IMG/VR virus record: IMGVR_UViG_3300014204_000165
Span: 12,606-76,605 of that record
Direction: 5' to 3' (one strand)
Length of the DNA stretch: 64,000 bases
From: a virus
Lineage: Duplodnaviria; Caudoviricetes
Each line of letters begins with the position of its first letter. The first letter of the stretch is position 1. Both the position numbers and the translations under genes were made by a program. Positions 5,814 through 57,411 of the stretch are shown in pieces. Under the pieces are notes generated by a model. It made no database searches. It saw only the letters and a program-made list of their open reading frames with translations, and had not been told where the DNA came from.

Positions 5814-6136
5814 TAAATTTCACCTCGCGCATGACAATGGGCAAATTCGTCCTTGGACTCGAATTGATAAAGGTGTCCGATATAACTATCTTGATTACGT
5901 TGGCAAAATTTTAGACCAGCTTCGCATGAATATTGTAAGTATGGTTCATCAAATAGTAACCAAGATGTTTGTCCAAGTATTTCAAGTATTTTAAATCCGT
6001 GAATATTTGGTCCATTGTTCATATTAATCCAATAATTTGTACTATTACTATGGATTATATATATTTTAAATATAAAGCATTTTGTTGGATTAATTATATT
6101 AAAGGTACCATCTGGGTTCAAGGTTAGTTCTTTCAT
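5813..6136 (-). CDS. Paralog family B member
   Basis: MKELTLNPDGTFNIINPTK...YLQY...FES.DEF. Confidence 0.75.
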   Translation of the reverse strand: MKELTLNPDGTFNIINPTKCFIFKIYIIHSNSTNYWINMNNGPNIHGFKILEILGQTSWLLFDEPYLQYSCEAGLKFCQRNQDSYIGHLYQFESKDEFAHCHARGEI

Positions 6137-6501
6137 AACTGATGCTTCCTAACGGTATGCTTACACCGTTTATTTCTTATAACTTGGTGAGACTTTACTT
6201 GTTCGGTGCCGTCTGGCAAGATCTCGACTTTCTCCTTGGTAATCTTTCTATTGGATAGTTCTATCTGCTTGTTATGGGCAATGCCATCTACTGGGATAAG
6301 TTCGGTTTCAAAACGACCCCTATTCGTGACGGACTGCGTAGTTACAAGATTAGTTTCCTGAAGTTCTTTAAGGGCATTTATTGTCTGGGTACTCTCGGTA
6401 TAAGTCAGTGCTTCTATTAGATTGTCCACAGTTACGATCCTGTTTTTATTCCTGCGCTGGATCTTGGCCAGTAGTTGTTGGGCGTTTTCGGATAATGTCA
6501 T
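6133..6501 (-). CDS. Putative winged-helix DNA-binding protein
   Basis: HTH-like TVDNLIEAL...TINALKELQETNLV followed by beta-wing; basic. Confidence 0.55.
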   Translation of the reverse strand: MTLSENAQQLLAKIQRRNKNRIVTVDNLIEALTYTESTQTINALKELQETNLVTTQSVTNRGRFETELIPVDGIAHNKQIELSNRKITKEKVEILPDGTEQVKSHQVIRNKRCKHTVRKHQL

Positions 6502-6660
6502 TTAATTCAATCCCGTCCACATACCTATCAATACTGCTACGATCCCTGTTAGTATGAACCACTTAGAATCTGGATCATTTTGAGTATATTTATTTATTCC
6601 AATACATAAAACTAGACATCCTAATAATACAAATGCTATAACGTCAGGATAAAAAGTCAT
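6502..6660 (-). CDS. Small two-TM membrane protein (not in ORF track)
   Basis: 52 aa MTFYPDVIAFVLLGCLVLCIG..., fills the gap between genes with ATGA overlap. Confidence 0.5.
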   Translation of the reverse strand: MTFYPDVIAFVLLGCLVLCIGINKYTQNDPDSKWFILTGIVAVLIGMWTGLN

Positions 6661-10324: not shown

Positions 10325-12205
10325 TTAAGAAAATACTCTCCTTGGGAATTCATATTCGCGACGGGTTTTACTCCAAGAGTCCGTGGGTACAAAATAGCCG
10401 ACTATACGTGTGACATGTGTTAGTATTTTCTTTCCGCAAAGCGGACAGGTTTCTGAGGTACCACACACGGTAACGTGACCATCTTCGCATTGCCCAAAAG
10501 AATAGTTGATGCTAAGGTGGCTAATTTTCTTTTCCACTGAATATTTTATAAGATGTTTCATAATATTAGAATCTGTTATTTTATCCTTTAGATTAAGATG
10601 TAGAATACCTCCACCGCTTATTAGATCTTGAAATTGCCCTGTTAATTCTATTCTTTCTGGCAGAGATGCATCTAAAATCAAAGGAATGTATTGATTGGAG
10701 TATAGTTCAAAGGGTATTTTATCATTACCATAAAGCACTTTATCTTTTTGAACAAACTTGGATGCTACACTTTCTCCCGGAATTTCTTCCGTATTCATTG
10801 GATAACCTAACTGCCTACTCGTTTCTTTTGCAAAGTTTTCAATAAACATTAACATTTCTTTTGTAAAAGTGATACCTTCTACAGATTTAATATCCAAGTT
10901 CATAAATATATTTGTTTCAAATACACCAATGATACCAAATGTACTAAAGTATCGTTTAATGTTAAGCCAATTAAGTGGAGAAAAGAACTTCAGGAATCCT
11001 GCATTTATTCTTTTCTGAATTATATCCTCGCGGTGTACTTGCAACAAATCACGAGCATTTTCTAATTGTCTTTGAAGTTCTATAAAGAATTTTTCTTTAT
11101 TTCCATTCGATTTTAGTGCAATTCTCGGTAAATTTAGTGTAACGACGCGAACACTACCAATTGATCCAATTGATCCATTTCCAAATGAATCAATACGTGG
11201 CATATCATCTAAATTATTTAATAATCGACAACAACTACTAATTTTATTACCACTATTTATATATAAATTGAAACATCCTGAATTGCAATTAACGTTTGAT
11301 ACAAAATTAAGAAAATCATCATCTATTATTTTTCTATCTTTGTCAATACACAAATTAAGCGTCGCAACTGGAAAGCGATAAGGTAGACCACTTTCGGGGT
11401 CTCCTCGCGAAAACCAAGTACAGAAGACCTTCTGGAGATACATTATGTATTCAAAGTCTGGTTTTGATCCATCTGGAAATATATAAGATGAAAACAATTT
11501 CTCTAAATTTGGTCTATCAAATATTGATATGTTAGAAAAGGGTGATTGTGATGCGATGCGGAATTTATTATTCACAATATGGACAAGTCGCTGATAGTCG
11601 TCGCGAATATCATTTTCACTTCGATTCTCTTTCTTGGCATAATACGAATAATTTACGAAAAGATCACCAATTGCTACCGCACCCGAAAATTCTTGGCTTG
11701 CATCCATAATTAGTTCCGTTACCATCCCGATGAAAGAAGCCGCTCGCTTTGGAGGTAGACTTTTTAACTGTCCATACGGTCGTCCACTATTCATCAATTC
11801 TGTTGTGCTCATGCTAGTACAATATGGAACTTGAATACCAAATGAGGAACTATCATGAAAATAAATATTGCCTTTTATAATTGCTGATAATAGTGTATTT
11901 GCGTGTTCCAATCCAAATCTACGTTCTGCATACCGATGAAGTAGATACATGCCCTCTAATTTTTGTACCCCTTTAACAATTTCTGCCCCGTACGCATTCG
12001 GATTTTTACTCTCACCAGAGTTTGCATTTGCATCTATTGTTACATCTACAAAGTTTTCTGTAAAGTATGAATGCGACATTTGCCCCACATCCAAACATCG
12101 ACGCGATATTCCCTCCAAATCGAGCAATCTTCTCCCATTTTCTGTTTGATTAAAAGAATTGTACCAATTGTCAAAATTTTCACTGAATGTTGTCTCTAGT
12201 CTCAT
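10325..12205 (-). CDS. nrdD: Class III anaerobic ribonucleoside-triphosphate reductase (no ATP cone)
   Basis: FHD, QSPFSN, SCCRL, IGSVRVVTLNLPR, GGGILH, C-terminal Zn site and glycyl-radical RIVGY; start moved to SD-led ATG 12205. Confidence 0.96.
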   Translation of the reverse strand: MRLETTFSENFDNWYNSFNQTENGRRLLDLEGISRRCLDVGQMSHSYFTENFVDVTIDANANSGESKNPNAYGAEIVKGVQKLEGMYLLHRYAERRFGLEHANTLLSAIIKGNIYFHDSSSFGIQVPYCTSMSTTELMNSGRPYGQLKSLPPKRAASFIGMVTELIMDASQEFSGAVAIGDLFVNYSYYAKKENRSENDIRDDYQRLVHIVNNKFRIASQSPFSNISIFDRPNLEKLFSSYIFPDGSKPDFEYIMYLQKVFCTWFSRGDPESGLPYRFPVATLNLCIDKDRKIIDDDFLNFVSNVNCNSGCFNLYINSGNKISSCCRLLNNLDDMPRIDSFGNGSIGSIGSVRVVTLNLPRIALKSNGNKEKFFIELQRQLENARDLLQVHREDIIQKRINAGFLKFFSPLNWLNIKRYFSTFGIIGVFETNIFMNLDIKSVEGITFTKEMLMFIENFAKETSRQLGYPMNTEEIPGESVASKFVQKDKVLYGNDKIPFELYSNQYIPLILDASLPERIELTGQFQDLISGGGILHLNLKDKITDSNIMKHLIKYSVEKKISHLSINYSFGQCEDGHVTVCGTSETCPLCGKKILTHVTRIVGYFVPTDSWSKTRREYEFPRRVFS

Positions 12206-13193
12206 GTTTATTCCTCTGTTTAAGTATATTATATTCTTCCTTTGTAAAATAAGATCGACCATTATATATCTCATCAATTATCCTATGGATAATAGTTTCC
12301 CACTCTTCTCGATTATAATTAGTTTTATTATGACAGGTCATACATAACGCCGCAAAATAGACTGGTAATCCATCGCAACAAGCGGATTTATTATAGTGAA
12401 CATGATGACATGATAATTGTCTACCATTTTCTTCAGTTGTTTTATTACAAATAAGACATTCATAATTGAAGAAAGCTCTTATTCTCCGTCTCAAATCTGG
12501 ATTCCATTTTGGACAATACGGTTCAAAAGAAATACCACCTTTCCAAGCAGGAGATTTGTCTCCAAAATTTTTTGATGCCATTTCAGACATCATATCTCGT
12601 TTTAGACAACCACAACTCCTAGTCGAACCGTCTATAAGAGCAGATCCAATTACACTTGTTTCTTGACCACACTCACAAATACATTTCCATTTGACATTAC
12701 CACTTTTAGCAGTATTTTCATCTTTTTCCAAAACAAGTAATCTTGAGAATTTTATACCAATTAAATTTTTGGTATTACATTCTCTTGCTCTTTCCGTAGC
12801 ATAACATCCACAACTTTTGGTTGATCCGCGTATTAACGAACTTCCAGTGACATTAACTATATTACCACAAGAACATTTACATTTCCAAAGAATACTTCCC
12901 CATTTATTTATTCCGTATCTTTCTAATACTGTAAGTCGTCCGAACGTATTACCTAATAAATTTTTACTAGTAGCCTTGCTAGTCATTTCTTTTTGTAGAC
13001 ATCCACAACTTTGTTTATGACCACTAGTTAAGTACCATCCAACTGTAACTATTTCTTTACCGCAGTCGCATAAACATACCCAAGAAGATTGTTCATTATT
13101 GTTTTCTGAATCACGAATTGCTGTTAGTCTACCAAATTTCTTTCCGACTAGATTTAATCTATTATGAGCAATATTTCCTTTCTTAAAAACCAT
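12180..13193 (-). CDS. Free-standing HNH homing endonuclease with repeated DNA-binding modules
   Basis: Three L.G..F.RL..+..W.C.C.CG..GS...SCGC repeats; C-terminal CxxC..HHVHYN..LCxxCH. Confidence 0.85.
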   Translation of the reverse strand: MVFKKGNIAHNRLNLVGKKFGRLTAIRDSENNNEQSSWVCLCDCGKEIVTVGWYLTSGHKQSCGCLQKEMTSKATSKNLLGNTFGRLTVLERYGINKWGSILWKCKCSCGNIVNVTGSSLIRGSTKSCGCYATERARECNTKNLIGIKFSRLLVLEKDENTAKSGNVKWKCICECGQETSVIGSALIDGSTRSCGCLKRDMMSEMASKNFGDKSPAWKGGISFEPYCPKWNPDLRRRIRAFFNYECLICNKTTEENGRQLSCHHVHYNKSACCDGLPVYFAALCMTCHNKTNYNREEWETIIHRIIDEIYNGRSYFTKEEYNILKQRNKHETRDNIQ

Positions 13194-13197
13194 TACA

Positions 13198-13677
13198 CTA
13201 CTTCCTAAAATCCCTATTAGTTAAAATACATTTCTCAAAGATTCTCTGGTTCGCTGAAGCAGGGAATGACCCAGTAGCTTGCTCCTCGATATAAGGACCG
13301 TCCACCACAATATCAACATTGCTTTTAATACCTTCAGGAAGGTCTTCAAATAGAAGTCCTGTATAGAGAATCTTAGGTAAAGTAATGTTAGTAAGTAAGG
13401 TATATAAAGGTTTTGGCTGGAGAGTGGGTTCTCCTCCCAAAAAGCAGATGGAATTATAAAAATTGTTGAATTTATTTAAGTGATCTAAAACAAGGTCAGT
13501 TTCATAATCGAAGCCTCCGTCTAATGGCTGAAGATTCGGATTTTGGCAATGAGCACAATTTATTTGGCATCCTTGAAACCAGATTTCCAGTGACATTCCT
13601 TGTCCATTTAGGGTTCCAGAAGAAATACCAGCACATCGAAATAAAATAATGATCACCTTATAAAAATATTTGAACAA
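13198..13677 (-). CDS. nrdG: Class III RNR activating radical-SAM enzyme (start uncertain)
   Basis: GCxxxCxxCQN, FLGGEP, LYTG, VDGPY. Confidence 0.93.
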   Translation of the reverse strand: MFKYFYKVIIILFRCAGISSGTLNGQGMSLEIWFQGCQINCAHCQNPNLQPLDGGFDYETDLVLDHLNKFNNFYNSICFLGGEPTLQPKPLYTLLTNITLPKILYTGLLFEDLPEGIKSNVDIVVDGPYIEEQATGSFPASANQRIFEKCILTNRDFRK

Positions 13678-13685
13678 AAAATTCT

Positions 13686-14177
13686 TTAGATTCCTTCATT
13701 CATATATTGTCCACTATATCCTTTTTCTACTTCACCGTCCAAAGGCATAAAGACAATTTGAGCAAGTCGGGCATTTGGATGTATAGTTGCACCGTTTTTA
13801 TTATAAATAATCAGCACGCATTTTGGCTTTCCTGAGTAACCTGCGTCAAATACGGCGGTTTGCATAGAGGCGCCTATCCGGAGCAAGGTTGATCTTGGCC
13901 AAGCAAAACCTACCAAGTCCTTCGGGATGGTTAAAGTCTCGTTAAATGAGACTAGGTAAGCCCCAGCGGGTAGTTTCCAAACATCTCCTAATTTACCAGC
14001 ATCTTGCATACGGGGAAGTACTCTCTTAGAATTATCAAAATCTACAGAACCTTCTCCGGAATAGGTTTCTATTTTTGAAACGGTTAAGTCTACTCCACAA
14101 GGTTGGACTTGTTTTTCTGCGTTTATCATATCTGAAATGATATGACGATCTTGAATTTGTTTACCGATAAGTGTCAT
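13686..14177 (-). CDS. dut: Archaeal-type trimeric dUTPase / dCTP deaminase family
   Basis: QPCGVDL, PRSTLLRIG, DAGYSG, ARLAQIVF, GYSGQY. Confidence 0.88.
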   Translation of the reverse strand: MTLIGKQIQDRHIISDMINAEKQVQPCGVDLTVSKIETYSGEGSVDFDNSKRVLPRMQDAGKLGDVWKLPAGAYLVSFNETLTIPKDLVGFAWPRSTLLRIGASMQTAVFDAGYSGKPKCVLIIYNKNGATIHPNARLAQIVFMPLDGEVEKGYSGQYMNEGI

Positions 14178-18831: not shown

Positions 18832-19858
18832 TTAATATCGAAGAATAGCAGCTATACCACCAAACACCTTACGAAGTTGTTCGCCTTCTTCGAATTCTGT
18901 TGATATTATGTTAACTTTGGTACTAAATTTAGATGTCAATTCTTCTAGTGCTTTTTCATGGGATGAAAGTAACAACGTTTTAACTCTTCCGGTTAGAAGG
19001 GCATCTTCCACGGATTTTCTTCCATATAATATTGCACCGTCTTTGCTAAGCAGTGTAAAGAAACTTCTCATTATGTTACGTTGCTTCACTAGTTCGGTTT
19101 CTTTTAAGAGTTCCTCGGCATTTTGTATTGTTTCCTTTATACCTTGGAATCCAGTATAACCAACATCCACAACACCGGTAATCTTTTTTCGAAGTTCGTG
19201 ATGCAAATATTCACTATCATTGAAATCATTTTTCGTGAGTCCTGGGCCACTTATTATAATTCCGGAAAGGTCTTTTAAATCAAGTAATTCTTTTGAGATA
19301 TTATCCGCACTTGATTTAAACCAATCAATGATTGCAAGTTGTCGGTTTTTCTCAAATCGCTTCGCAGACTGTCCGCCTCTACTCATTTTCTGAGGAACAT
19401 TACTTTCGTCTTCAAAAAGGACATTAATAGAAGTTCCTTGTAAGGTAACTAAGGTAACTTCATGCAGGTCCAGGCAAATAATCGCATGTTTTGGACCTTT
19501 ATCTTGCATGCTTTCAAGAGGGTCCAAAAAGAATTCTGATCCACATCGATAGATAATACCTTTAAGTGGCTTAGGAACTGCTATAGCCTCACTTATCCAA
19601 CCAGTTGATGTTTCACCGACAAAGATAGCATAATGCCCATCAGATAAGGTTTTTAACTTTTCCAGACAACTCTTGATTGCAGATATAACTGCTTGTCGAG
19701 TCACACGAGATTTGATATTCTCAGCTTTTCCTGCTTCGTCGCGCAAAAGACCGGCAGCATCTGGTACTTTTCCTTCAGGAACATATAACGTGATTAGTTC
19801 TGTTCCTTTGCCTCTTAGTTCACACAGTGTGCTAAAGACAGTAGTTGTTAATGGTCAT
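18832..19858 (-). CDS. prf1: Archaeal peptide chain release factor aRF1, 341 aa, needing a +1 frameshift at CTT-TAG (19837-19832)
   Basis: GTELITLYVP, NIKS, YxCxxxF (YRCGSEF), GGQ and C-terminal FGGIAAILRY motifs; SD AGGTGA plus ATG 19858 lies in a different frame from the body. Confidence 0.9.
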
Positions 19859-19877
19859 TTAATTCACCTATTTTATA

Positions 19878-46586: not shown

Positions 46587-47384
46587 TTAATCCACTCCCT
46601 TTACGACCTTTACTTTTATAATATTAAATCTATCTTTCTTATAACTATCTACAACTTCAAAAGAAATTCCTCTATCTAATAAAACTTCTTGCTCCTTTTC
46701 TTTATACGAGTTAGGCTCTGCGTAAGGTGTCATGTTAATTGCATGAATACCACTGGGTGCCTGGATTTCTAATATTGTTTTAGGCACTAATTTTATACCA
46801 GATCCCCATCCACCTACAGCAAAATTAGCAGCCTGATCAAGTTTTTTAGAAGTCGAACTAAATCTCTTAAATTTTATAAGTTCCCCTGGTATTGTTGTTT
46901 CATATAGTTCTGCTCTTTTTAAATCGAGTCCCATATATAAGGTCTGATCTTTGTCTAGAACAGAATTTCTCATTGCATTATCTACATTTTTTAACATTCT
47001 AGCATCAAAATCATTTGGTTCTAATGTATATTCTTTTCCTTTTTCTAATATATCATTAACAGATTTTGATCCCATATCAGTAAATTCACGTAAATAATGG
47101 GCTTGTCTTTCTGTTATTAAAGGATTAGACTTTTCTTTAAATTCCTTTGACTTAAAATATTCTGCACCAGAACTGAAGTTATGAACATAAGTTCCATCTG
47201 GTAATTTTGCGTCTAAATCTACTTCACCATTCGGTAATTTTGGAACATCATATTTGTCTTTTTTACTGGAAGTTATTTCATTATCACACTTGTTATCCTG
47301 GCCATTAAATTCGCATTTATAGTTCAATTTCATCTCGTACATTTTACCAGGTTTACCTAAAAAAGTGTAAATAAGAATCACCAA
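46587..47384 (-). CDS. VIP2/ExoS-like ADP-ribosyltransferase domain protein
   Basis: FSSTS, +LEI..P.G..A, EQEVLL.RG..F.V; the usual L-Y-R-G reads L-Y-M-G. Confidence 0.85.
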   Translation of the reverse strand: MVILIYTFLGKPGKMYEMKLNYKCEFNGQDNKCDNEITSSKKDKYDVPKLPNGEVDLDAKLPDGTYVHNFSSGAEYFKSKEFKEKSNPLITERQAHYLREFTDMGSKSVNDILEKGKEYTLEPNDFDARMLKNVDNAMRNSVLDKDQTLYMGLDLKRAELYETTIPGELIKFKRFSSTSKKLDQAANFAVGGWGSGIKLVPKTILEIQAPSGIHAINMTPYAEPNSYKEKEQEVLLDRGISFEVVDSYKKDRFNIIKVKVVKGVD

Positions 47385-48074: not shown

Positions 48075-48308
48075 TTGAAATACATTCAACTATATCCAAA
48101 TGCCGATCGTGCAGAAGATTTAGGCAGTTCCTTGATGCACTTCCGGTATATACATGGACCTTGTGATAATTGTGGTCACGATACGCACTTCGTTGACCTT
48201 GATATTGAGAGATTTGTCTGCTCAGAAGAATGCAGAAAAGCAAGCATAGAAAAAGCGAACCAAAAAGTATTTAATAATGAAAGTCTAACACTAACTATAG
48301 ATTTGTAG
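48075..48308 (+). CDS. Small Zn-binding protein
   Basis: CDNCG...CSEEC. Confidence 0.55.
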   Translation: MKYIQLYPNADRAEDLGSSLMHFRYIHGPCDNCGHDTHFVDLDIERFVCSEECRKASIEKANQKVFNNESLTLTIDL

Positions 48309-48319
48309 GAGTGAATTAA

Positions 48320-49051
48320 GTGACAGTATTAGGATGCAGAAAAGCCCGACCAACCGGAAGGGCATTAGCTCGCGCATTGCAAACTGACTATAGTGAGCAA
48401 GGTATCAGAGGGGAAGGTATAGTCTTACGTTATGGGAATGCTTCTCTACCCGATCCAGAGGATATGAATATAATTAATAAGTTGGAAGCCGTTAGGACCT
48501 CATCTAACAAGCCCAGGTGCAAGAAACTCCTTATGGAGCATAATATCCCGACGCCTAAACTAATCCCTTGGGACCAGGCCCTACGCGGCGATATAACCTT
48601 TCCTATAATCGTGCGCAAAAACACCCATTTTCAGGGTAAATTCTTCTATGTTGTGAATAACTTACAGGAACTAAGGAGGTTCGATCCAGCAGGACATTAC
48701 ATCCAAGAAAAGGTTGAAAAAATCGATGAATTTAGGCTCTTCATTCTGAAAGATAGAATTATCGAGGCGTCTCTTAAAGAATGTCCTGCACCAAACATTA
48801 TGATCAGGAATCATCAGGCTGGCTGCTTCTTCAGGTGGGTAAGAGTCGCTGACATAAATTCAGAATTAAAAAGAGCAGCCCGAGATTCCATCGAGAAGTG
48901 TGGCTTGGATTTTGGAGCCATAGATTGTGCAACCGTACGCAAACCAGATGGCAGAACAGGAGTAACAATCTTTGAATTAAATTCGGCTCCCGGACTTGTC
49001 CCACGCAAAGTAGATCTACTTGTAACAAAAATTCATGAACTTTGTATTTAA
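48320..49051 (+). CDS. ATP-grasp (RimK-like) ligase
   Basis: NKP.CK..L....IPTP, FPII+RK..H.QG, YIQE, EFR+, LDFGAID, FELNSAPG. Confidence 0.9.
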   Translation: MTVLGCRKARPTGRALARALQTDYSEQGIRGEGIVLRYGNASLPDPEDMNIINKLEAVRTSSNKPRCKKLLMEHNIPTPKLIPWDQALRGDITFPIIVRKNTHFQGKFFYVVNNLQELRRFDPAGHYIQEKVEKIDEFRLFILKDRIIEASLKECPAPNIMIRNHQAGCFFRWVRVADINSELKRAARDSIEKCGLDFGAIDCATVRKPDGRTGVTIFELNSAPGLVPRKVDLLVTKIHELCI

Positions 49052-49066
49052 GAGGGTAAACTAACC

Positions 49067-49417
49067 ATGATAGAAAAATATAGATACTGGCATTTAATAC
49101 CAAAAACAGAATATGGACCATATACAACAGAGTTTGATGCAGGTAAACCTATTTCTAACGTCGAAGCAGTACCTATTCTAAAAAAGAGATATAGAATGAG
49201 CAGAGTTTCTGAGGTTATTGGACATAATGTTCCAATAAAAGAAATGCCTCAAAAGGAGGCGATTCTAACAGTAACTTTCCAAGTGAAAGTAAAATATCGA
49301 GATCCGAGAGGACTAGAAATAGTAAAGGAAAGTCTTAAAGAAGATCCTGGATTCGGAACAGATTGGTGTGAGATGGTTACTGCTCATCCTGTTAAAAAGA
49401 GTATTATTGTAGAATAA
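49067..49417 (+). CDS. Hypothetical protein
   Basis: 116 aa following the ATP-grasp gene. Confidence 0.55.
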   Translation: MIEKYRYWHLIPKTEYGPYTTEFDAGKPISNVEAVPILKKRYRMSRVSEVIGHNVPIKEMPQKEAILTVTFQVKVKYRDPRGLEIVKESLKEDPGFGTDWCEMVTAHPVKKSIIVE

Positions 49418-49627
49418 TTTAACTTTTTTATAAAACCTTTCTTATTTTCAACCGTAAGTTATATATTCTCAAAGGTACTAGTATTGTATTGGAGATGAGT
49501 TAAAATGACATATCCGATTTGGGTTGGAGCAACAAAGTTCGCTTACACCATAAATCTAACATATACTCTTATTAGTGTTAATACTATATAAAGTCATGCT
49601 ATAAAAAAGTTAAATTCAGTTCTGCTT

Positions 49628-50326
49628 TTATCCACACATCCCTCCTCCTGGCAACGCCCTATTCGGAGTATCCTCATCGTAATACTTGTCCAAGAAATCA
49701 TTATAGGCTTTGTGCGTTCCAACACCCCCTTTGCACTTACCTACGTTCTTGTTGTTGTATACGTAACTTACCCTTTTGTACCCGTCATTTGAGAATAGGA
49801 TGCCACGTTCATTCTCAAAGGAACCCCAACGAGTTATAACACCTGTTGGATCCACGACTACGAACTTACCGCTCAGAAGATTCAAGACTTCATCTCCCAG
49901 AGTCGCGACCATTATTGCAGCCATTCTAGTATCGTTCATGGGGCCCTTTGGCATCTCGATTTGTCCGCTGGTCACCATGTTCATGGTTAAGGTCATCCAG
50001 TCAAAGATCACTCCATTATGGAACAATACTGGTACTTCAACTTGATCATTTACTACTAATTCGCTATGTTCGTCTATGTTAAATGGATGGCAAAGTTCTT
50101 GACTAACTCCTCCGGATGTTGTGGTCCTGAAATGTACTACATGAGGTAAGACATTCATATCGGCATATGCCTCGATAAAGTCTTCCTCGGTCATATGACC
50201 CTTGTTAATCCTGACCTTATCATGCCAAGCATAAGCAAATCCTGCTCCATCACTATTGTTCGTGAAGCAGTTATGAATTTCCCAATTAGTCAACTTCCGA
50301 TCTTTACAAATTGCTATTATACACAT
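49628..50326 (-). CDS. Class II (Ntn) glutamine amidotransferase
   Basis: SD-led MC start (N-terminal Cys nucleophile), NSDGAG, HFR.TT.G, CHPF, FHNG. Confidence 0.9.
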   Translation of the reverse strand: MCIIAICKDRKLTNWEIHNCFTNNSDGAGFAYAWHDKVRINKGHMTEEDFIEAYADMNVLPHVVHFRTTTSGGVSQELCHPFNIDEHSELVVNDQVEVPVLFHNGVIFDWMTLTMNMVTSGQIEMPKGPMNDTRMAAIMVATLGDEVLNLLSGKFVVVDPTGVITRWGSFENERGILFSNDGYKRVSYVYNNKNVGKCKGGVGTHKAYNDFLDKYYDEDTPNRALPGGGMCG

Positions 50327-50330
50327 ATTT

Positions 50331-51857
50331 TCACCTGCAATATTCATTTATATATGTTGTAATCCCGATTACTAGTTCTTGACCAAACAACGTACTGAAT
50401 CCCTCTGAGGTACGCCTATTGTAAGACAACCCAACTTGAAGGGTCCTACTAGATGCATTCCATACTGGATGTGGAATACTACTCACTACAGTTGTCTTGC
50501 TTGTCGGAATCGTACATAAATTTACGCCTCGTTGATGACCAAGACCATACATTTTTATAGTTATTGGCAAACTAACTTTGACTTTCTCGCTTATATACTT
50601 TTTGATCCACTGTCTTACGTAAGGACTCCACTTATCGCTGAATATTACAGTGACCAGTGGTGGTTTTACCTCGACTTGCTCAGCAACATGCCAACTAGCT
50701 TTTATACTTTTGGTTGGCTTATAGCCTGATATAAATTTTACGAAATAATTTGCCTGCTGTTTGGTCAAGCCACCCACATTAATGTAGTCTTGGATTGTGG
50801 GTCTGCTTTCGTATTCTAAAGTATGCTCCTGGAAGTACTTTTCACAGAGGTTTTGTACCAACCTTAGTGTAATATACGTGATTGCTGGATTCTGGAAGAC
50901 TGCACTTGGCGCTGTCCGGTACTCAAACCCATGAGGCTGGGTTCTAATTTGGCCAAGCTTCTTATATTCGTCTCGGGCAGTCCCGCTCAGTTCAATTACA
51001 GCCCTGCCCACAAAGTCATCCAAGATTTGGATTAGACCAGCATCTGGTCTCCAAGACCTACCAATCCCAACATGAATATGACCACCTAATGGATAATCAT
51101 CACCTTGGTCGGATAGGTCATATTGGCTGTACTTTTGGGAGAATTTTTTAAACAACTTTTTAATGTTGCTTACGACTTTTCTGGGATCACCTGCAGCTGG
51201 TCTTAATTCAACTTGATCGCCTGCTCCATCTACTCCAAGATCACTACCATCAGAATCTTCGTCGTCGTCCTCCCAACAATCCTCTATATGGTCCTCTGCA
51301 TAAAGGACCTCATTTCCACTGGTTGGATCTACTAATTCAAACTCTGGATCTGCTCCAATTGTAACTTTGTCAAACTCAATTTTCTTGGTCTTTGTCCTCT
51401 TATCTTGACTAATCGGGGTCAAGTGAAGTTTTTGCACAAGTCGTGGCCAAATTTCCCGGAAGGTTGCCACCGTCTCTTCATTATGGGTCCAATCAGTAGC
51501 CAATATCGTATTTATCCTAGACAAGTAATAACCAGCAAATTTCCCATTTACTCGGATAACAATTACTGGTTCTTGTCCATCATACACATTCATATTCATG
51601 TTTTCATAGAATATTTCATCTCGAACATTCACATGATCTATGTTGATTTCGCCCATCCTGGTTATACCCAACCGGAACCTCGGATATGTGTATAGCCCGT
51701 TTTCTACCAGATCATCCCGCCCATATAAGGTATAGTGTGACCTGTGCACCGCGAAGTATGCACTAGTTTCTGCTACAATTGATGACATTTCTTCAGCCAA
51801 ACTGTTGTGATTCTCTAAAGAAATAAATGGGTGTTGGCCTACTACTTTTTTCTTCAT
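50331..51857 (-). CDS. phiEco32-like COOH-NH2 ligase type 2, paralog 2
   Basis: IGADPEFE, G.DG...ELRP, LGGHIHVG, GFEYRT. Confidence 0.88.
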   Translation of the reverse strand: MKKKVVGQHPFISLENHNSLAEEMSSIVAETSAYFAVHRSHYTLYGRDDLVENGLYTYPRFRLGITRMGEINIDHVNVRDEIFYENMNMNVYDGQEPVIVIRVNGKFAGYYLSRINTILATDWTHNEETVATFREIWPRLVQKLHLTPISQDKRTKTKKIEFDKVTIGADPEFELVDPTSGNEVLYAEDHIEDCWEDDDEDSDGSDLGVDGAGDQVELRPAAGDPRKVVSNIKKLFKKFSQKYSQYDLSDQGDDYPLGGHIHVGIGRSWRPDAGLIQILDDFVGRAVIELSGTARDEYKKLGQIRTQPHGFEYRTAPSAVFQNPAITYITLRLVQNLCEKYFQEHTLEYESRPTIQDYINVGGLTKQQANYFVKFISGYKPTKSIKASWHVAEQVEVKPPLVTVIFSDKWSPYVRQWIKKYISEKVKVSLPITIKMYGLGHQRGVNLCTIPTSKTTVVSSIPHPVWNASSRTLQVGLSYNRRTSEGFSTLFGQELVIGITTYINEYCR

Positions 51858-53458
51858 AGCAGTTGGCCACCTTCGCGAATAAGATATTCGATTATCATTT
51901 GGCGGACAGTCCTCACTATTTCTCTCCGTCTTGAACTACCCATGTCCAAGCGTCGATTACGCGAAACTCCTACATTCAGAACATTTCCAGACCAATGCGG
52001 TTTTGGCAAGCGTTCCGTGGGTATCCTATCAAATCCTGATACCGCCAGTGTGCACCTATCTGAACCACGTTCCTCACTCAGGCCATAGAACGAAATCGTG
52101 ACGGGAATACTTGGATTAATCGCGTCAATGATTTCGTCCATAAGAATCTGAGAAGTTCCTGGAGCCCACTCATCGTGGAACTCTACTACAATATTGCTCC
52201 TATCAATCACTCCTATGGGAGCGGGCTTAACGTGCCATGCAGATCTCAATGAGGTTTCTGGCTTATACTCATTAATGAATTTCATGAAGTAGGTGGCTTG
52301 TTTTTCGGTTAGCCCGCCAACATCCACATAATTTTGGATGGTAGGTCTCTCCTCATACTTAAGTTGCTCCTGATTGAAGTACTTCTCGGACAGATTTTTC
52401 GCAAGCTTAAAGACAATATATGCAATCTGTGGGTTCTGGTAGACGGCTGATGGCGGAGTTCGATACTCAAAACCATGAGGCTGTGACCGATGTGCCCCCA
52501 ACTGTTTGTAATTTTCGCGGGCGCTTCCACTCAGTTCCAGTGTGGGTCTTCCAATAAAGTCATCTAGAATCATGCAGAGTTCGCGATCAATTTCCACAGA
52601 TTGCCCGACTCCTACGTGAATATGTCCTCCAAGAGGATAGTGATTTCCACCATCTGTCAGGTCAATATTCTCGTATTGAATAGCAAACTTTTTCATAAGA
52701 TCGCGAATGTTTTTCACTACCTTACCAGGATTTTTAGAAGGCTGCGGACGAACTTCTACCTGAGCACAAGATCCATCGAGACCAATTTCCGTATGGGACG
52801 ACGTTGCATTATCACGATTTACAATGGTGTCTGCCCGCACAATCCGACCATTTTTCACTGTCTCGAATTCGGGATCACAACCAATTGTTACCTCGATTCT
52901 TTTGGCTTTTGGTCCGCTTCTTTTCTCGGCAGAGAAACTGTCCTCACATACTGGAATACTAAATGCTTCAACAAATTGTGGCCAAGCATATGCCAGAATC
53001 ATGGTCATATACTGGACATGCCAAGTCCAGTTAGTCGTGAGCCAAGTATTGAGTCTGGGCAGATAATACCCCACTATATGTCCATTGATTTTGGCAACTT
53101 GGGCCCGTTCCCCAGAAAGGCTGTTCTCAATTACAGTCTTACTCATACAATATAGTTCAGTCTCGCTTTCTGGTCTGCTAAGATGCTCGGCCATACCCTC
53201 GTACATGCCAGGTAGGTCATTTGGGATGCTCATATTATACTCCCCGATCACGTTTAGTGAAACGGTGCCCTGGCAATCTACATATATTGTATTGCGCTGA
53301 AGTGGGCCATTAATCCTATCGTAACACTTTACTGCGTGAATATGGTCCTCTACTATGGGAATAATGTTCTCTGCGTACGGATTCAACACACAATCTGCGT
53401 TGCCAACTTGTTTGCGCTCGGAACTTCTCGGAGCTTTGCCTTTAATTTCTCTCATCAT
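51854..53458 (-). CDS. phiEco32-like COOH-NH2 ligase type 2, paralog 1
   Basis: IGCDPEFE, GLDG...EVRP, LGGHIHVG, GFEYRT. Confidence 0.88.
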   Translation of the reverse strand: MMREIKGKAPRSSERKQVGNADCVLNPYAENIIPIVEDHIHAVKCYDRINGPLQRNTIYVDCQGTVSLNVIGEYNMSIPNDLPGMYEGMAEHLSRPESETELYCMSKTVIENSLSGERAQVAKINGHIVGYYLPRLNTWLTTNWTWHVQYMTMILAYAWPQFVEAFSIPVCEDSFSAEKRSGPKAKRIEVTIGCDPEFETVKNGRIVRADTIVNRDNATSSHTEIGLDGSCAQVEVRPQPSKNPGKVVKNIRDLMKKFAIQYENIDLTDGGNHYPLGGHIHVGVGQSVEIDRELCMILDDFIGRPTLELSGSARENYKQLGAHRSQPHGFEYRTPPSAVYQNPQIAYIVFKLAKNLSEKYFNQEQLKYEERPTIQNYVDVGGLTEKQATYFMKFINEYKPETSLRSAWHVKPAPIGVIDRSNIVVEFHDEWAPGTSQILMDEIIDAINPSIPVTISFYGLSEERGSDRCTLAVSGFDRIPTERLPKPHWSGNVLNVGVSRNRRLDMGSSRRREIVRTVRQMIIEYLIREGGQLL

Positions 53459-53490
53459 TTAATTACCTCCAAACAGTTACTTTAAAAGTG

Positions 53491-53619
53491 TAGTATAAAT
53501 AGTTTTTGGCTCGCAAATTTTGAATATAAAGTTATAGCCAAAAAGTATATATTCTTGAAGTACTAATGTGGAAAATAGCATAATGTTTAAATATGGGCTT
53601 GTCCAAAACCTTTAAATAC
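53491..53619. promoter_or_regulatory. Divergent BRE-TATA promoter pair
   Basis: Minus CCAAAAACTATTTATAC (about 53491-53509); plus CCAAAACCTTTAAATAC (53603-53619). Confidence 0.6.
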
Positions 53620-53678: not shown

Positions 53679-53963
53679 ATGTCCGAAAATAATAACGAAC
53701 TAAAAATAATCCTGGAAGGAATACAATCTGGTAGACTCCAAGTTGAGTCTTTACAGAAAAGAGAAATGACCAAAAAGAAGACAAAATACACTATAATAGT
53801 AAGTGATCAAGCAATACCAGAAAAGCAGAGCAAAGCCAAGAAAATTATAACTAAGAAAAAAGAAATTTTGCAAGAAAAACCAGTCGAAAAGAAACCAGAT
53901 ACAATTCCTGTACCAGCTGTTAAGCCCTTGATGGCCGATATTTCCAGAGTAGGTGGCTACTGA
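53679..53963 (+). CDS. Lys-rich hypothetical protein
   Basis: 94 aa, SD AGGAG. Confidence 0.6.
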   Translation: MSENNNELKIILEGIQSGRLQVESLQKREMTKKKTKYTIIVSDQAIPEKQSKAKKIITKKKEILQEKPVEKKPDTIPVPAVKPLMADISRVGGY

Positions 53964-56775: not shown

Positions 56776-57411
56776 CTAAAATGGTACATTTCCTAAGTTA
56801 CTGCCCTTGAGTTGTGGATGTTGAGTTGGAATCAGTCTAGTAACATAATATGAAACCACGGCAATTACCGTAGATGCCGGAATACCAGGATATGCTCTCA
56901 ATGCCCAGCACAAATATAGTGAAAATATGCCTTGCCAGAGACCACCTGATAAAACTTCATAGGAAGTTTCACCTTCCAAGCAAGCGGCCCATAACCTACG
57001 ATTAGTTGTACTGTTGTCGGCAAAGCAGCATTCTAGAACAACATCCAAAACAGCCGTATATGGAATTTGACCGAGTATTGTCCATATCTCGTCATCTCGA
57101 ACAGGTTGCATATCAACTGAGACTATGCATTCATCGCGGCCGTCTAATTCGTCGCCATTGTCATCCGTAAGGTAGGCACCATGCCCGCTAAATACAAATA
57201 CAGCGGAATCATTTGGTCCAATGCTTAAAGCAAACGCATTCATAGCGGTTAGAATGTTTGCTCGCGTTGCACCTGCTTCTGTTAACTGGGTTATGGATGT
57301 GAAACCTCGACCCAGTAAAGTTGTATTCCAATTGGTTAGGTCGTTGGGTGGAGACCTTATCTGATAAGGTGAAGGATATGCCCCAATAGCGATAATTAAA
57401 GCTTTTTTCAT
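56776..57411 (-). CDS. Metacaspase (peptidase C14 family)
   Basis: KKALIIAI..Y, FVFSGHG (His), DE.DG.DECIV..D, VLECC (Cys). Confidence 0.9.
   Translation of the reverse strand: MKKALIIAIGAYPSPYQIRSPPNDLTNWNTTLLGRGFTSITQLTEAGATRANILTAMNAFALSIGPNDSAVFVFSGHGAYLTDDNGDELDGRDECIVSVDMQPVRDDEIWTILGQIPYTAVLDVVLECCFADNSTTNRRLWAACLEGETSYEVLSGGLWQGIFSLYLCWALRAYPGIPASTVIAVVSYYVTRLIPTQHPQLKGSNLGNVPF

Follow-up and report, generated by a model that had tools for sequence, protein, structure and literature searches.

We analysed a cluster of four genes at positions 48320–53458 of a 64,000-nucleotide stretch of viral DNA (the window; bases 12606–76605 of a 76.6-kb IMG/VR viral contig with CheckV completeness of 54%). 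The cluster encodes two paralogous COOH–NH2 ligases of the PF14395 family (ligA and ligB), a class-II glutamine amidotransferase-like protein (GAT), and a RimK-like ATP-grasp protein, that is, three ATP-dependent ligases and an amidotransferase on about 4.6 kb of coding DNA, arranged in two converging transcription units. It is clearly a long-form variant of the enzyme module of phiEco32- and LUZ24-type phages, and we tentatively interpret it as a pathway for a short Glu/Gln-type product. The module itself was already known; new is the duplicated long-form PF14395 pair, accompanied by a minimal GAT and a minimal ATP-grasp protein, in a virus that plausibly infects a methanogen.

The Two Ligases

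Both ligases pass the gathering cut-off of Pfam family PF14395 (25 bits), ligA with 92 bits and ligB with 59.4 bits, and they share 45% identity over 426 aa (E 3e-114). Motifs DPEFE, GGHIH, and EYRT are found in ligA and ligB alike, as is the N-terminal signature NG..GYYL.R.NT...T.WT, in agreement with the original prediction for this locus, which had described two tandem paralogous ligases with these motifs. The same prediction had named the catalytic residues as a point to check: the motifs, in the form DPE[FL]E, GGHIH, and EYR[TS], do not vary in either paralogue clade, and nearly all of the roughly 55 relatives examined keep them. Judging by these motifs, both enzymes look catalytically intact, and neither resembles a dead enzyme. 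The DPExE, GGHxH, and ExR motifs presumably match, residue by residue, the metal and ATP ligands of glutamine synthetase (GS).

According to the AlphaFold2 model of ligA (built on 38 relatives, mean pLDDT 90), the protein consists of an N-terminal domain (residues 1–165), a core with the fold of GS and glutamate–cysteine ligase (GCL) (about 184–412), and a C-terminal alpha/beta domain (420–530); the additional N- and C-terminal domains claimed earlier are thus real by the model and by structural comparison. The core is matched by YbdK/GCS2 (1tt4; VIA Z 13.4, rmsd 3.7, 218 residues aligned), GshF (Z 12.0), PafA (11.6), GshA (11.3), and Dop (10.8), as well as by many glutamine synthetases and GCL at Z 9–12, and Foldseek agrees, with matches to GS and YbdK at E 3e-5. 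The modelled core therefore has a carboxylate–amine ligase (GS/GCL) fold, and the profile of the ligases has no match among PDB sequences.

The C-terminal domain of the model shows weak likeness to alpha/beta folds of the Amidase_3/PghP type (Z 6–7) and has no conserved metal ligands, hence we treat it as a generic alpha/beta domain. For the N-terminal domain, folded alone (pLDDT 74, residues 1–25 disordered), no fold match was found, the best VIA Z being 3.7. Its profile recovers only 44 proteins among 1.84 billion representatives, namely, long-form ligases and stand-alone proteins of 140–217 aa, and it has no similarity to ORF88 of phage EP335.

Two of the stand-alone homologues of this domain (178–187 aa; L078, positions 6001–6537, and the JGI 137-kb contig) are encoded away from the module in related genomes of ~140 kb, near radical-SAM, clamp-loader-like, and two TGT/DpdA-like genes.

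Residues conserved specifically in the clade of ligA (clade A: G19, N20, D22, C23, H41, H92, W146, Y150, R405, K409) and in that of ligB (clade B: E22, F35, H41, D122, G213, D214, N446) fall mostly in the N-terminal region. Since the N-terminal regions of the two proteins hold different conserved residues, ligA and ligB probably use different substrates.

Glutamine Amidotransferase and ATP-Grasp Protein

In class-II glutamine amidotransferases, the nucleophilic Cys stands next to the initiator Met, and the active site further includes an Arg, an Asn–Gly oxyanion hole, and a glutamine-binding Asp. The longest open reading frame (ORF) of the window GAT spans 49628–50347; all 13 orthologues begin with Met-Cys-Ile-Ile-Ala (MCIIA), and hence the true gene starts at 50326, with Cys2 as the nucleophile. 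With the start so corrected, the Cys2 class-II GAT foreseen by the original prediction stands: C2, R67 of the H-x-R motif, N104–G105 of the HNG motif, and D132 are invariant in 14 orthologues, and the orthologue profile matches the GAT-II domain of GFAT1 (E 9e-6), PurF (0.013), and a stand-alone homologue (3mdn). The single sequence scores 20 bits against Pfam GATase_6, under the cut-off of 27.

The C-terminal tail of GAT (49628–49700, minus strand) is variable in the close clade, where an acidic/aromatic patch is retained along with a near-terminal Cys (followed or separated from the terminus by no more than one or two residues), and in loci L043–L046 it is extended by a Cys-rich segment.

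The ATP-grasp protein, encoded on the plus strand convergently with the ligases as had been claimed, matches phrog_2599 at 2e-17, and the best PDB matches of its orthologue profile are RimK structures (7qyr, 5zct, 4iwx; E 1e-13). The Mg/ATP residues are kept, the conserved positions being E137, R139, N164, D202, E219, and N221. Its best NCBIfam matches are MptN and the RimK family, all under the respective cut-offs: 30.4 bits vs. 143 for the RimK family TIGR00768, and, for the equivalogs, 37.3 vs. 350 for MptN and 23.4 vs. 300 for CofF; the score for LysX also is far under its cut-off. At the sequence level, the protein appears to be kin to RimK at the rank of superfamily only.

Conservation and Synteny

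The gene order p94 (divergent)–ligA–ligB–GAT–(variable slot)–ATP-grasp (convergent)–p194–(ADP-ribosyltransferase)–p205 is shared by loci L003, L004, L008, and L041–L048, and by the JGI 137-kb contig. Recurrence in at least 11 related viral contigs, which bears out the co-occurrence named as a check by the original prediction, means that this arrangement is not due to chance. The contigs sharing the order form one viral lineage, with sheath proteins 79–93% identical to that of the window.

In the tree of 56 relatives, ligA belongs to a clade of 18 proteins and ligB to a clade of 12, both nested, together with a third clade of six, in a group with 99% support. The separate positions of ligA and ligB indicate that the duplication is older than the spread of these viruses.

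Out of 71 ligase loci, 43 contain GAT, 20 combine a ligase, GAT, and an ATP-grasp gene, and 17 have two long ligase ORFs. In 36 of the 43 GAT-bearing loci, GAT follows a same-strand ligase at a distance of at most 150 nt; it presumably stays a separate ORF behind the ligase, rather than being fused to it, because a class-II GAT needs a free N-terminal Cys. An apparent ligase–GAT fusion in L058 was not confirmed with a clean GAT profile. PF14395 is fused to the C-terminal half of an ATP-grasp domain in Heliobacterium and Symbiobacterium, and a Bacillota cluster pairs PF14395 with ATPgrasp_YheCD; thus, the two ligase types are functionally linked.

In relatives (within L041–L047), the slot between GAT and the ATP-grasp gene is occupied by an HExxH protein of 96 aa, a transglutaminase-like Cys peptidase of 139 aa (PF13471, 1.5e-4), or both; the window lacks both genes. 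Comparison of the related loci revealed no conserved precursor-peptide ORF inside the module.

Long-form ligase–GAT pairs, some with an ATP-grasp gene, also occur on contigs assigned to bacteria, among them a Desulfovirgula isolate assembly (ligase–GAT only) and metagenome-assembled genomes (MAGs) of Victivallales and Thermocrinis; these loci seem to be truly bacterial or carried by bacteriophages. Among species-representative genomes, the nearest homologues of the ligases (at most 40% identity) are all on bacteria-labelled contigs. One of these contigs, L008 (JALHIE010000108.1, “Porphyromonadaceae MAG,” 10.9 kb), has exactly the viral synteny of p94, ligases, GAT, ATP-grasp, p194, and p205, with ligA broken into several ORFs and a transposase-like ORF of 367 aa inserted, and it is probably a mis-binned viral contig.

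Host

The best and nearly the only strong match of both the sheath protein (34% identity over 95%) and baseplate protein J (41% identity, 5e-79) is BK063673, Methanosarcinales virus vir525, a Methanosarcinales-assigned virus from a methanogenic enrichment, followed by haloarchaeal myoviruses. The window also encodes aRF1 (TIGR03676, 288 bits, over the cut-off of 235), whose nearest cellular relatives (35–40% identity) are scattered over several euryarchaeal orders, coming from Archaeoglobi, Thermoplasmata, Methanocellales, Methanosarcinales, and Methanotrichaceae, and whose viral homologues on other metagenomic contigs are 52–85% identical. This gene is absent from related genomes G001–G005, of which G001 and G002 are near-complete, and therefore marks only the sub-lineage of the window. 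The DNA of the window occurs in a landfill metagenome, and a part of it also in a groundwater metagenome. The tail genes nearest to those of a Methanosarcinales virus, aRF1, and the landfill DNA together support an archaeal host. Hence, of the methanogen virus assumed in the original prediction, the archaeal part stands, as these sequence similarities make an archaeal tailed virus very probable, while a methanogen as the host is plausible.

A block of anaerobic nucleotide metabolism in the window, comprising NrdD, a small radical-SAM activase-like gene, and a dCTP deaminase-like gene, fits an anaerobic host.

Function of the Module

All components of the module indicate amide chemistry of the glutamate type. 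In enzymes of the GS/GCL/PafA fold, a (gamma-)carboxylate is activated by conversion to an acyl-phosphate; members of the RimK family append Glu through an alpha linkage to a terminal carboxylate; and class-II GATs hydrolyse the amide of glutamine or gamma-glutamyl amides. Starting from the observed folds, family membership, intact catalytic motifs, and conserved gene order, we infer the substrates, the order of steps, the role of GAT, and the product. In the reading that we prefer, and to which we give somewhat less than an even chance, the module is a stepwise, ribosome-independent, ATP-driven pathway of amide-bond formation making a short peptide-like product of the Glu/Gln type. LigA and ligB would each activate a carboxylate as acyl-phosphate, by analogy the gamma-carboxylate of glutamate, and join it to an amine, the two acting on different substrates. 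The RimK-like ATP-grasp protein would add at least one alpha-linked residue, probably Glu, to the terminal carboxylate, following the logic of GshA plus GshB. GAT could hydrolyse glutamine and supply one of the ligases with ammonia, turning a carboxylate into an amide, or it could cleave a gamma-glutamyl amide in the manner of EgtC. We slightly favour a free small molecule for host takeover or counter-defence as the product over a protein tag, because of the GshF-like fusion logic, the lack of a conserved precursor ORF, and the gamma-glutamyl cyclotransferase of phiEco32-like phages.

Several points weigh against this reading. The HExxH and transglutaminase-like peptidase genes of the relatives fit processing of proteins or peptides equally well; RimK and PafA, which are among the closest relatives of the enzymes, act on proteins; and stand-alone class-II GAT-like proteins can be pure hydrolases. 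The large extra domains of the ligases and the conserved Lys-rich protein p94 could hint at a macromolecular substrate. Besides, as the original prediction had said of the product, the searched literature reports neither a product or activity nor experimental work for any member of the module.

Some of these points feature in the alternative of protein tagging or tail-building, possible but in our opinion doubtful, in which the ligases would couple a residue or peptide of the glutamate type to a viral or host protein, at a lysine or at the C-terminus, in a PafA–Pup-like manner, the ATP-grasp protein would extend the tag as RimK does on S6, and the peptidases of relatives would trim or reverse the mark; Lys-rich p94, virion proteins, and host translation or transcription proteins are candidate targets. 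PafA and Dop are indeed among the best structural matches of ligA, though YbdK and GCL score equal to or above PafA, and RimK is the best match of the ATP-grasp protein. The peptidase genes lie inside the module of relatives, and the extra N- and C-terminal domains of the ligases are family-specific, given the 44 matches mentioned above. However, the module is not accompanied by any conserved small protein resembling Pup, ubiquitin, or LysW, and p94, while adjoining ligA in all 11 close loci, is absent from distant loci that keep the ligase, GAT, and ATP-grasp genes, and its C-terminus is not conserved in the sequence alignment. It is bolder, and rather unlikely, that all four enzymes form a virus-encoded tagging machine resembling both pupylation and polyglutamylation, which would place a Glu/Gln peptide mark on a viral (p94, virion) or host protein, with the small zincin and the transglutaminase-like peptidases as erasers; if true, archaeal viruses would have a post-translational modification system not known in them before.

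The other two explanations are much less probable. Manipulation of host cofactors or nitrogen, i.e., glutamylation of F420 or tetrahydromethanopterin/sarcinapterin, or plain glutamine/glutamate auxiliary metabolism, appears very improbable: while the probable host lineage uses these cofactors, MptN heads the NCBIfam matches of the ATP-grasp protein together with RimK, and amidoligase and GATase genes of phages have been proposed by others to serve nitrogen metabolism, the scores are far under the MptN and CofF equivalog cut-offs, the ligases are not GS orthologues and have no PDB relative by sequence, and both the ATP-grasp family and long-form ligase–GAT clusters are present on contigs assigned to bacteria that lack these cofactors. 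Hypermodification of DNA bases, with the ligases and GAT joining ammonia or an amino acid to a base that bears a carboxyl or hydroxymethyl group, for restriction evasion, is, we think, very improbable, since the occurrence of TGT and ThyA-like genes does not follow that of the module. It is true that thymidine hypermodification genes are found together with amidoligase and amidotransferase Pfam matches in viral contigs (PMC8989533), that TGT/DpdA-like genes are present in two relatives of about 140 kb, and that the window virus has NrdD and a dCTP-deaminase-like gene; but there is no TGT in the record of the window or in module-bearing G001 and G002 (88–90% complete), the ThyA-like gene of the latter two is about 70 kb from the module, and in the vicinity of the module we saw neither a 5-hydroxymethyldeoxyuridine kinase gene nor one of the pyrophosphorylase type. 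TGT/DpdA and ThyA were thus rejected as a link to DNA modification, as they either do not co-occur with the module or are too distant from it.

Whatever the product, the module is kept by a lineage of roughly 125–145-kb viruses, and as the whole lineage keeps about 4.6 kb of enzymes, it must pay for itself. The long-form clusters on bacterial contigs mean that a methanogen-specific target, such as F420 or sarcinapterin, is not needed; the claim of the original prediction that in a methanogen the target must differ, e.g., be one of these cofactors, thus finds no support on this count, nor from the low MptN and CofF scores. The presence of the module both in a lineage of archaeal viruses and on bacterial contigs also speaks against the cell-wall idea cited for phiEco32, and suggests a target not specific to the host envelope, which is either shared by the two domains or encoded by the virus. 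The cluster of the window widens the range of a widespread viral module known since the 2009 prediction, and the long-form enzymes, with a high-confidence model available, offer a second, independent set of proteins for biochemistry.

Gene Layout and Neighbouring Features

The positions of the module genes and of adjacent features are given in Table 1. The region upstream of ligA looks like an archaeal promoter of the BRE/TATA type followed by a Shine–Dalgarno site, and a similar role may be proposed for the box in front of the ATP-grasp gene; sigma-70-like sites, in turn, are not above chance (20 found vs. 18.9 expected in the sigma-70 scan). Protein p94 may be a partner or a substrate of the module, or merely a syntenic neighbour. 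The 116-aa ORF has no Pfam, PHROG, or NCBIfam match and no homologue in 70 related loci, and both this ORF and the Zn-ribbon ORF were rejected as parts of the module because they have no homologue in related loci.

Table 1. Module genes and other features of the locus. Positions are those of the window, except for the slot peptidase genes, numbered within their own loci.
Feature	Position	Strand	Description
ligA	51854–53458	-	534 aa; long-form PF14395 COOH–NH2 ligase, clade A
ligB	50331–51857	-	508 aa; long-form PF14395 ligase, paralogue of ligA, clade B; 4-nt overlap of its start with the ligA stop
GAT	49628–50326	-	232 aa; stand-alone Ntn (class II) glutamine amidotransferase-like protein; begins 4 nt past the ligB stop
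ATP-grasp	48320–49051	+	243 aa; minimal RimK-like ligase, GTG start, convergent with the ligase operon
116-aa ORF	49067–49417	+	downstream of the ATP-grasp gene; unique to the window virus
Zn-ribbon ORF	48075–48308		beside the ATP-grasp gene; unique to the window virus
Convergent intergenic region	49418–49627		oligo-T runs on both strands; probably transcript ends, as read from the sequence
Promoter-like stretch	53465–53510	-	A-rich stretch and TTTATA box; GGAGGT lies 7 nt upstream of the ligA ATG
A-rich/TATTTAATA box and AGGAGTG	48250–48319	+	precedes the GTG start of the ATP-grasp gene; putative function
p94	53679–53963	+	small Lys-rich protein, divergent from ligA; adjoins the module in all close relatives (11 loci)
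Slot peptidase genes	L041 11929–12246; L044 11909–12214; L043 12220–12693		slot between GAT and ATP-grasp in relatives
ADP-ribosyltransferase	46587–47384	-	PF03496, 5.7e-13
Caspase-like C14 peptidase	56776–57411	-	stand-alone; PF00656, 3e-16
aRF1	18832–19870	-	TIGR03676
Anaerobic nucleotide-metabolism block	10325–14177	-	NrdD, radical-SAM activase-like, dCTP deaminase-like

Three more features were observed in the surroundings. The sequence GTTTTACGAT occurs in three copies on the plus strand of the window (33365, 44197, 48009), compared to 0.12 expected, and three copies are reached in none of 100 shuffles; one of the copies sits in the intergenic region between p194 and the ATP-grasp gene. 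The ADP-ribosyltransferase gene lies between conserved genes p194 and p205, and in relatives its position varies or the gene is absent. The gene for the caspase-like peptidase is conserved in five related loci, within several kb of the module.

Comparison With Known Systems

The module was reportedly predicted by Iyer et al. in 2009, and PF14395 is said to be named after its phiEco32/LUZ24-type form. Later papers cite this work in connection with modifying the cell wall, excluding superinfection, or making secondary metabolites, and none of them reports a product. Phages of the phiEco32 and LUZ24 types, represented in our comparison by the phiEco32-like phage EP335 and by UFV-P2, carry a PF14395 ligase of the short form together with a PF12224 amidoligase, a large GAT-II protein, and an ATP-grasp protein, and in EP335 a gamma-glutamyl cyclotransferase gene is found near the cluster. 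The enzyme set that the original prediction had ascribed to phiEco32-like phages is thus annotated there (COOH.NH2 ligase, GATase, ATP-grasp), as well as in LUZ24-like phages, and the window shares with them the PF14395 ligase, class-II GAT, and ATP-grasp protein encoded together in a virus.

The differences from this type are manifold. Instead of one short PF14395 ligase (about 265 aa) and a PF12224 (Amidoligase_2) protein, the window has two PF14395 ligases of 508 and 534 aa, which carry extra N-terminal (about 165 aa) and C-terminal (about 110 aa) domains; PF12224 has no match in either ligase or anywhere in the 76.6-kb record, where a second PF14395 stands in its place. Gamma-glutamyl cyclotransferase (PF06094, AIG2/GGACT) also has no match in the record, which is 54% complete. 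GAT is a stand-alone protein of 232 aa, compared to 486–614 aa in the phiEco32/LUZ24-type phages, and the ATP-grasp protein has 243 aa, compared to about 290 aa. Moreover, in the window the ATP-grasp unit is convergent, and the host, very probably, archaeal.

Glutathione synthesis by GshA and GshB, or by the fused GshF, resembles the proposed pathway in that a ligase of the GCL fold and then an ATP-grasp ligase build a gamma-glutamyl peptide; the best structural matches of ligA include GshF and GshA (Z 12.0 and 11.3), and PF14395–ATP-grasp fusions exist. However, the proteins of the window have no sequence-level kinship to the GshA and GshB families, and a second ligase and GAT are added. With pupylation by PafA/Dop and S6 polyglutamylation by RimK/RimB, the module shares the ligase fold of PafA and Dop, the ATP-grasp fold of RimK, and, in relatives, the pairing of ligases with peptidases, but the window has no gene for a Pup-like tag and its ATP-grasp protein scores under the RimK family cut-off. 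To our knowledge, no S6 orthologue with a Glu tail is known in the archaeal host.

Amidoligase and GATase genes have been reported in a virus of another archaeal lineage, Poseidoniales, and interpreted as auxiliary genes (PMC11706807). That report describes neither a duplicated long-form PF14395 pair nor an ATP-grasp partner, and it concerns a different host lineage and habitat.

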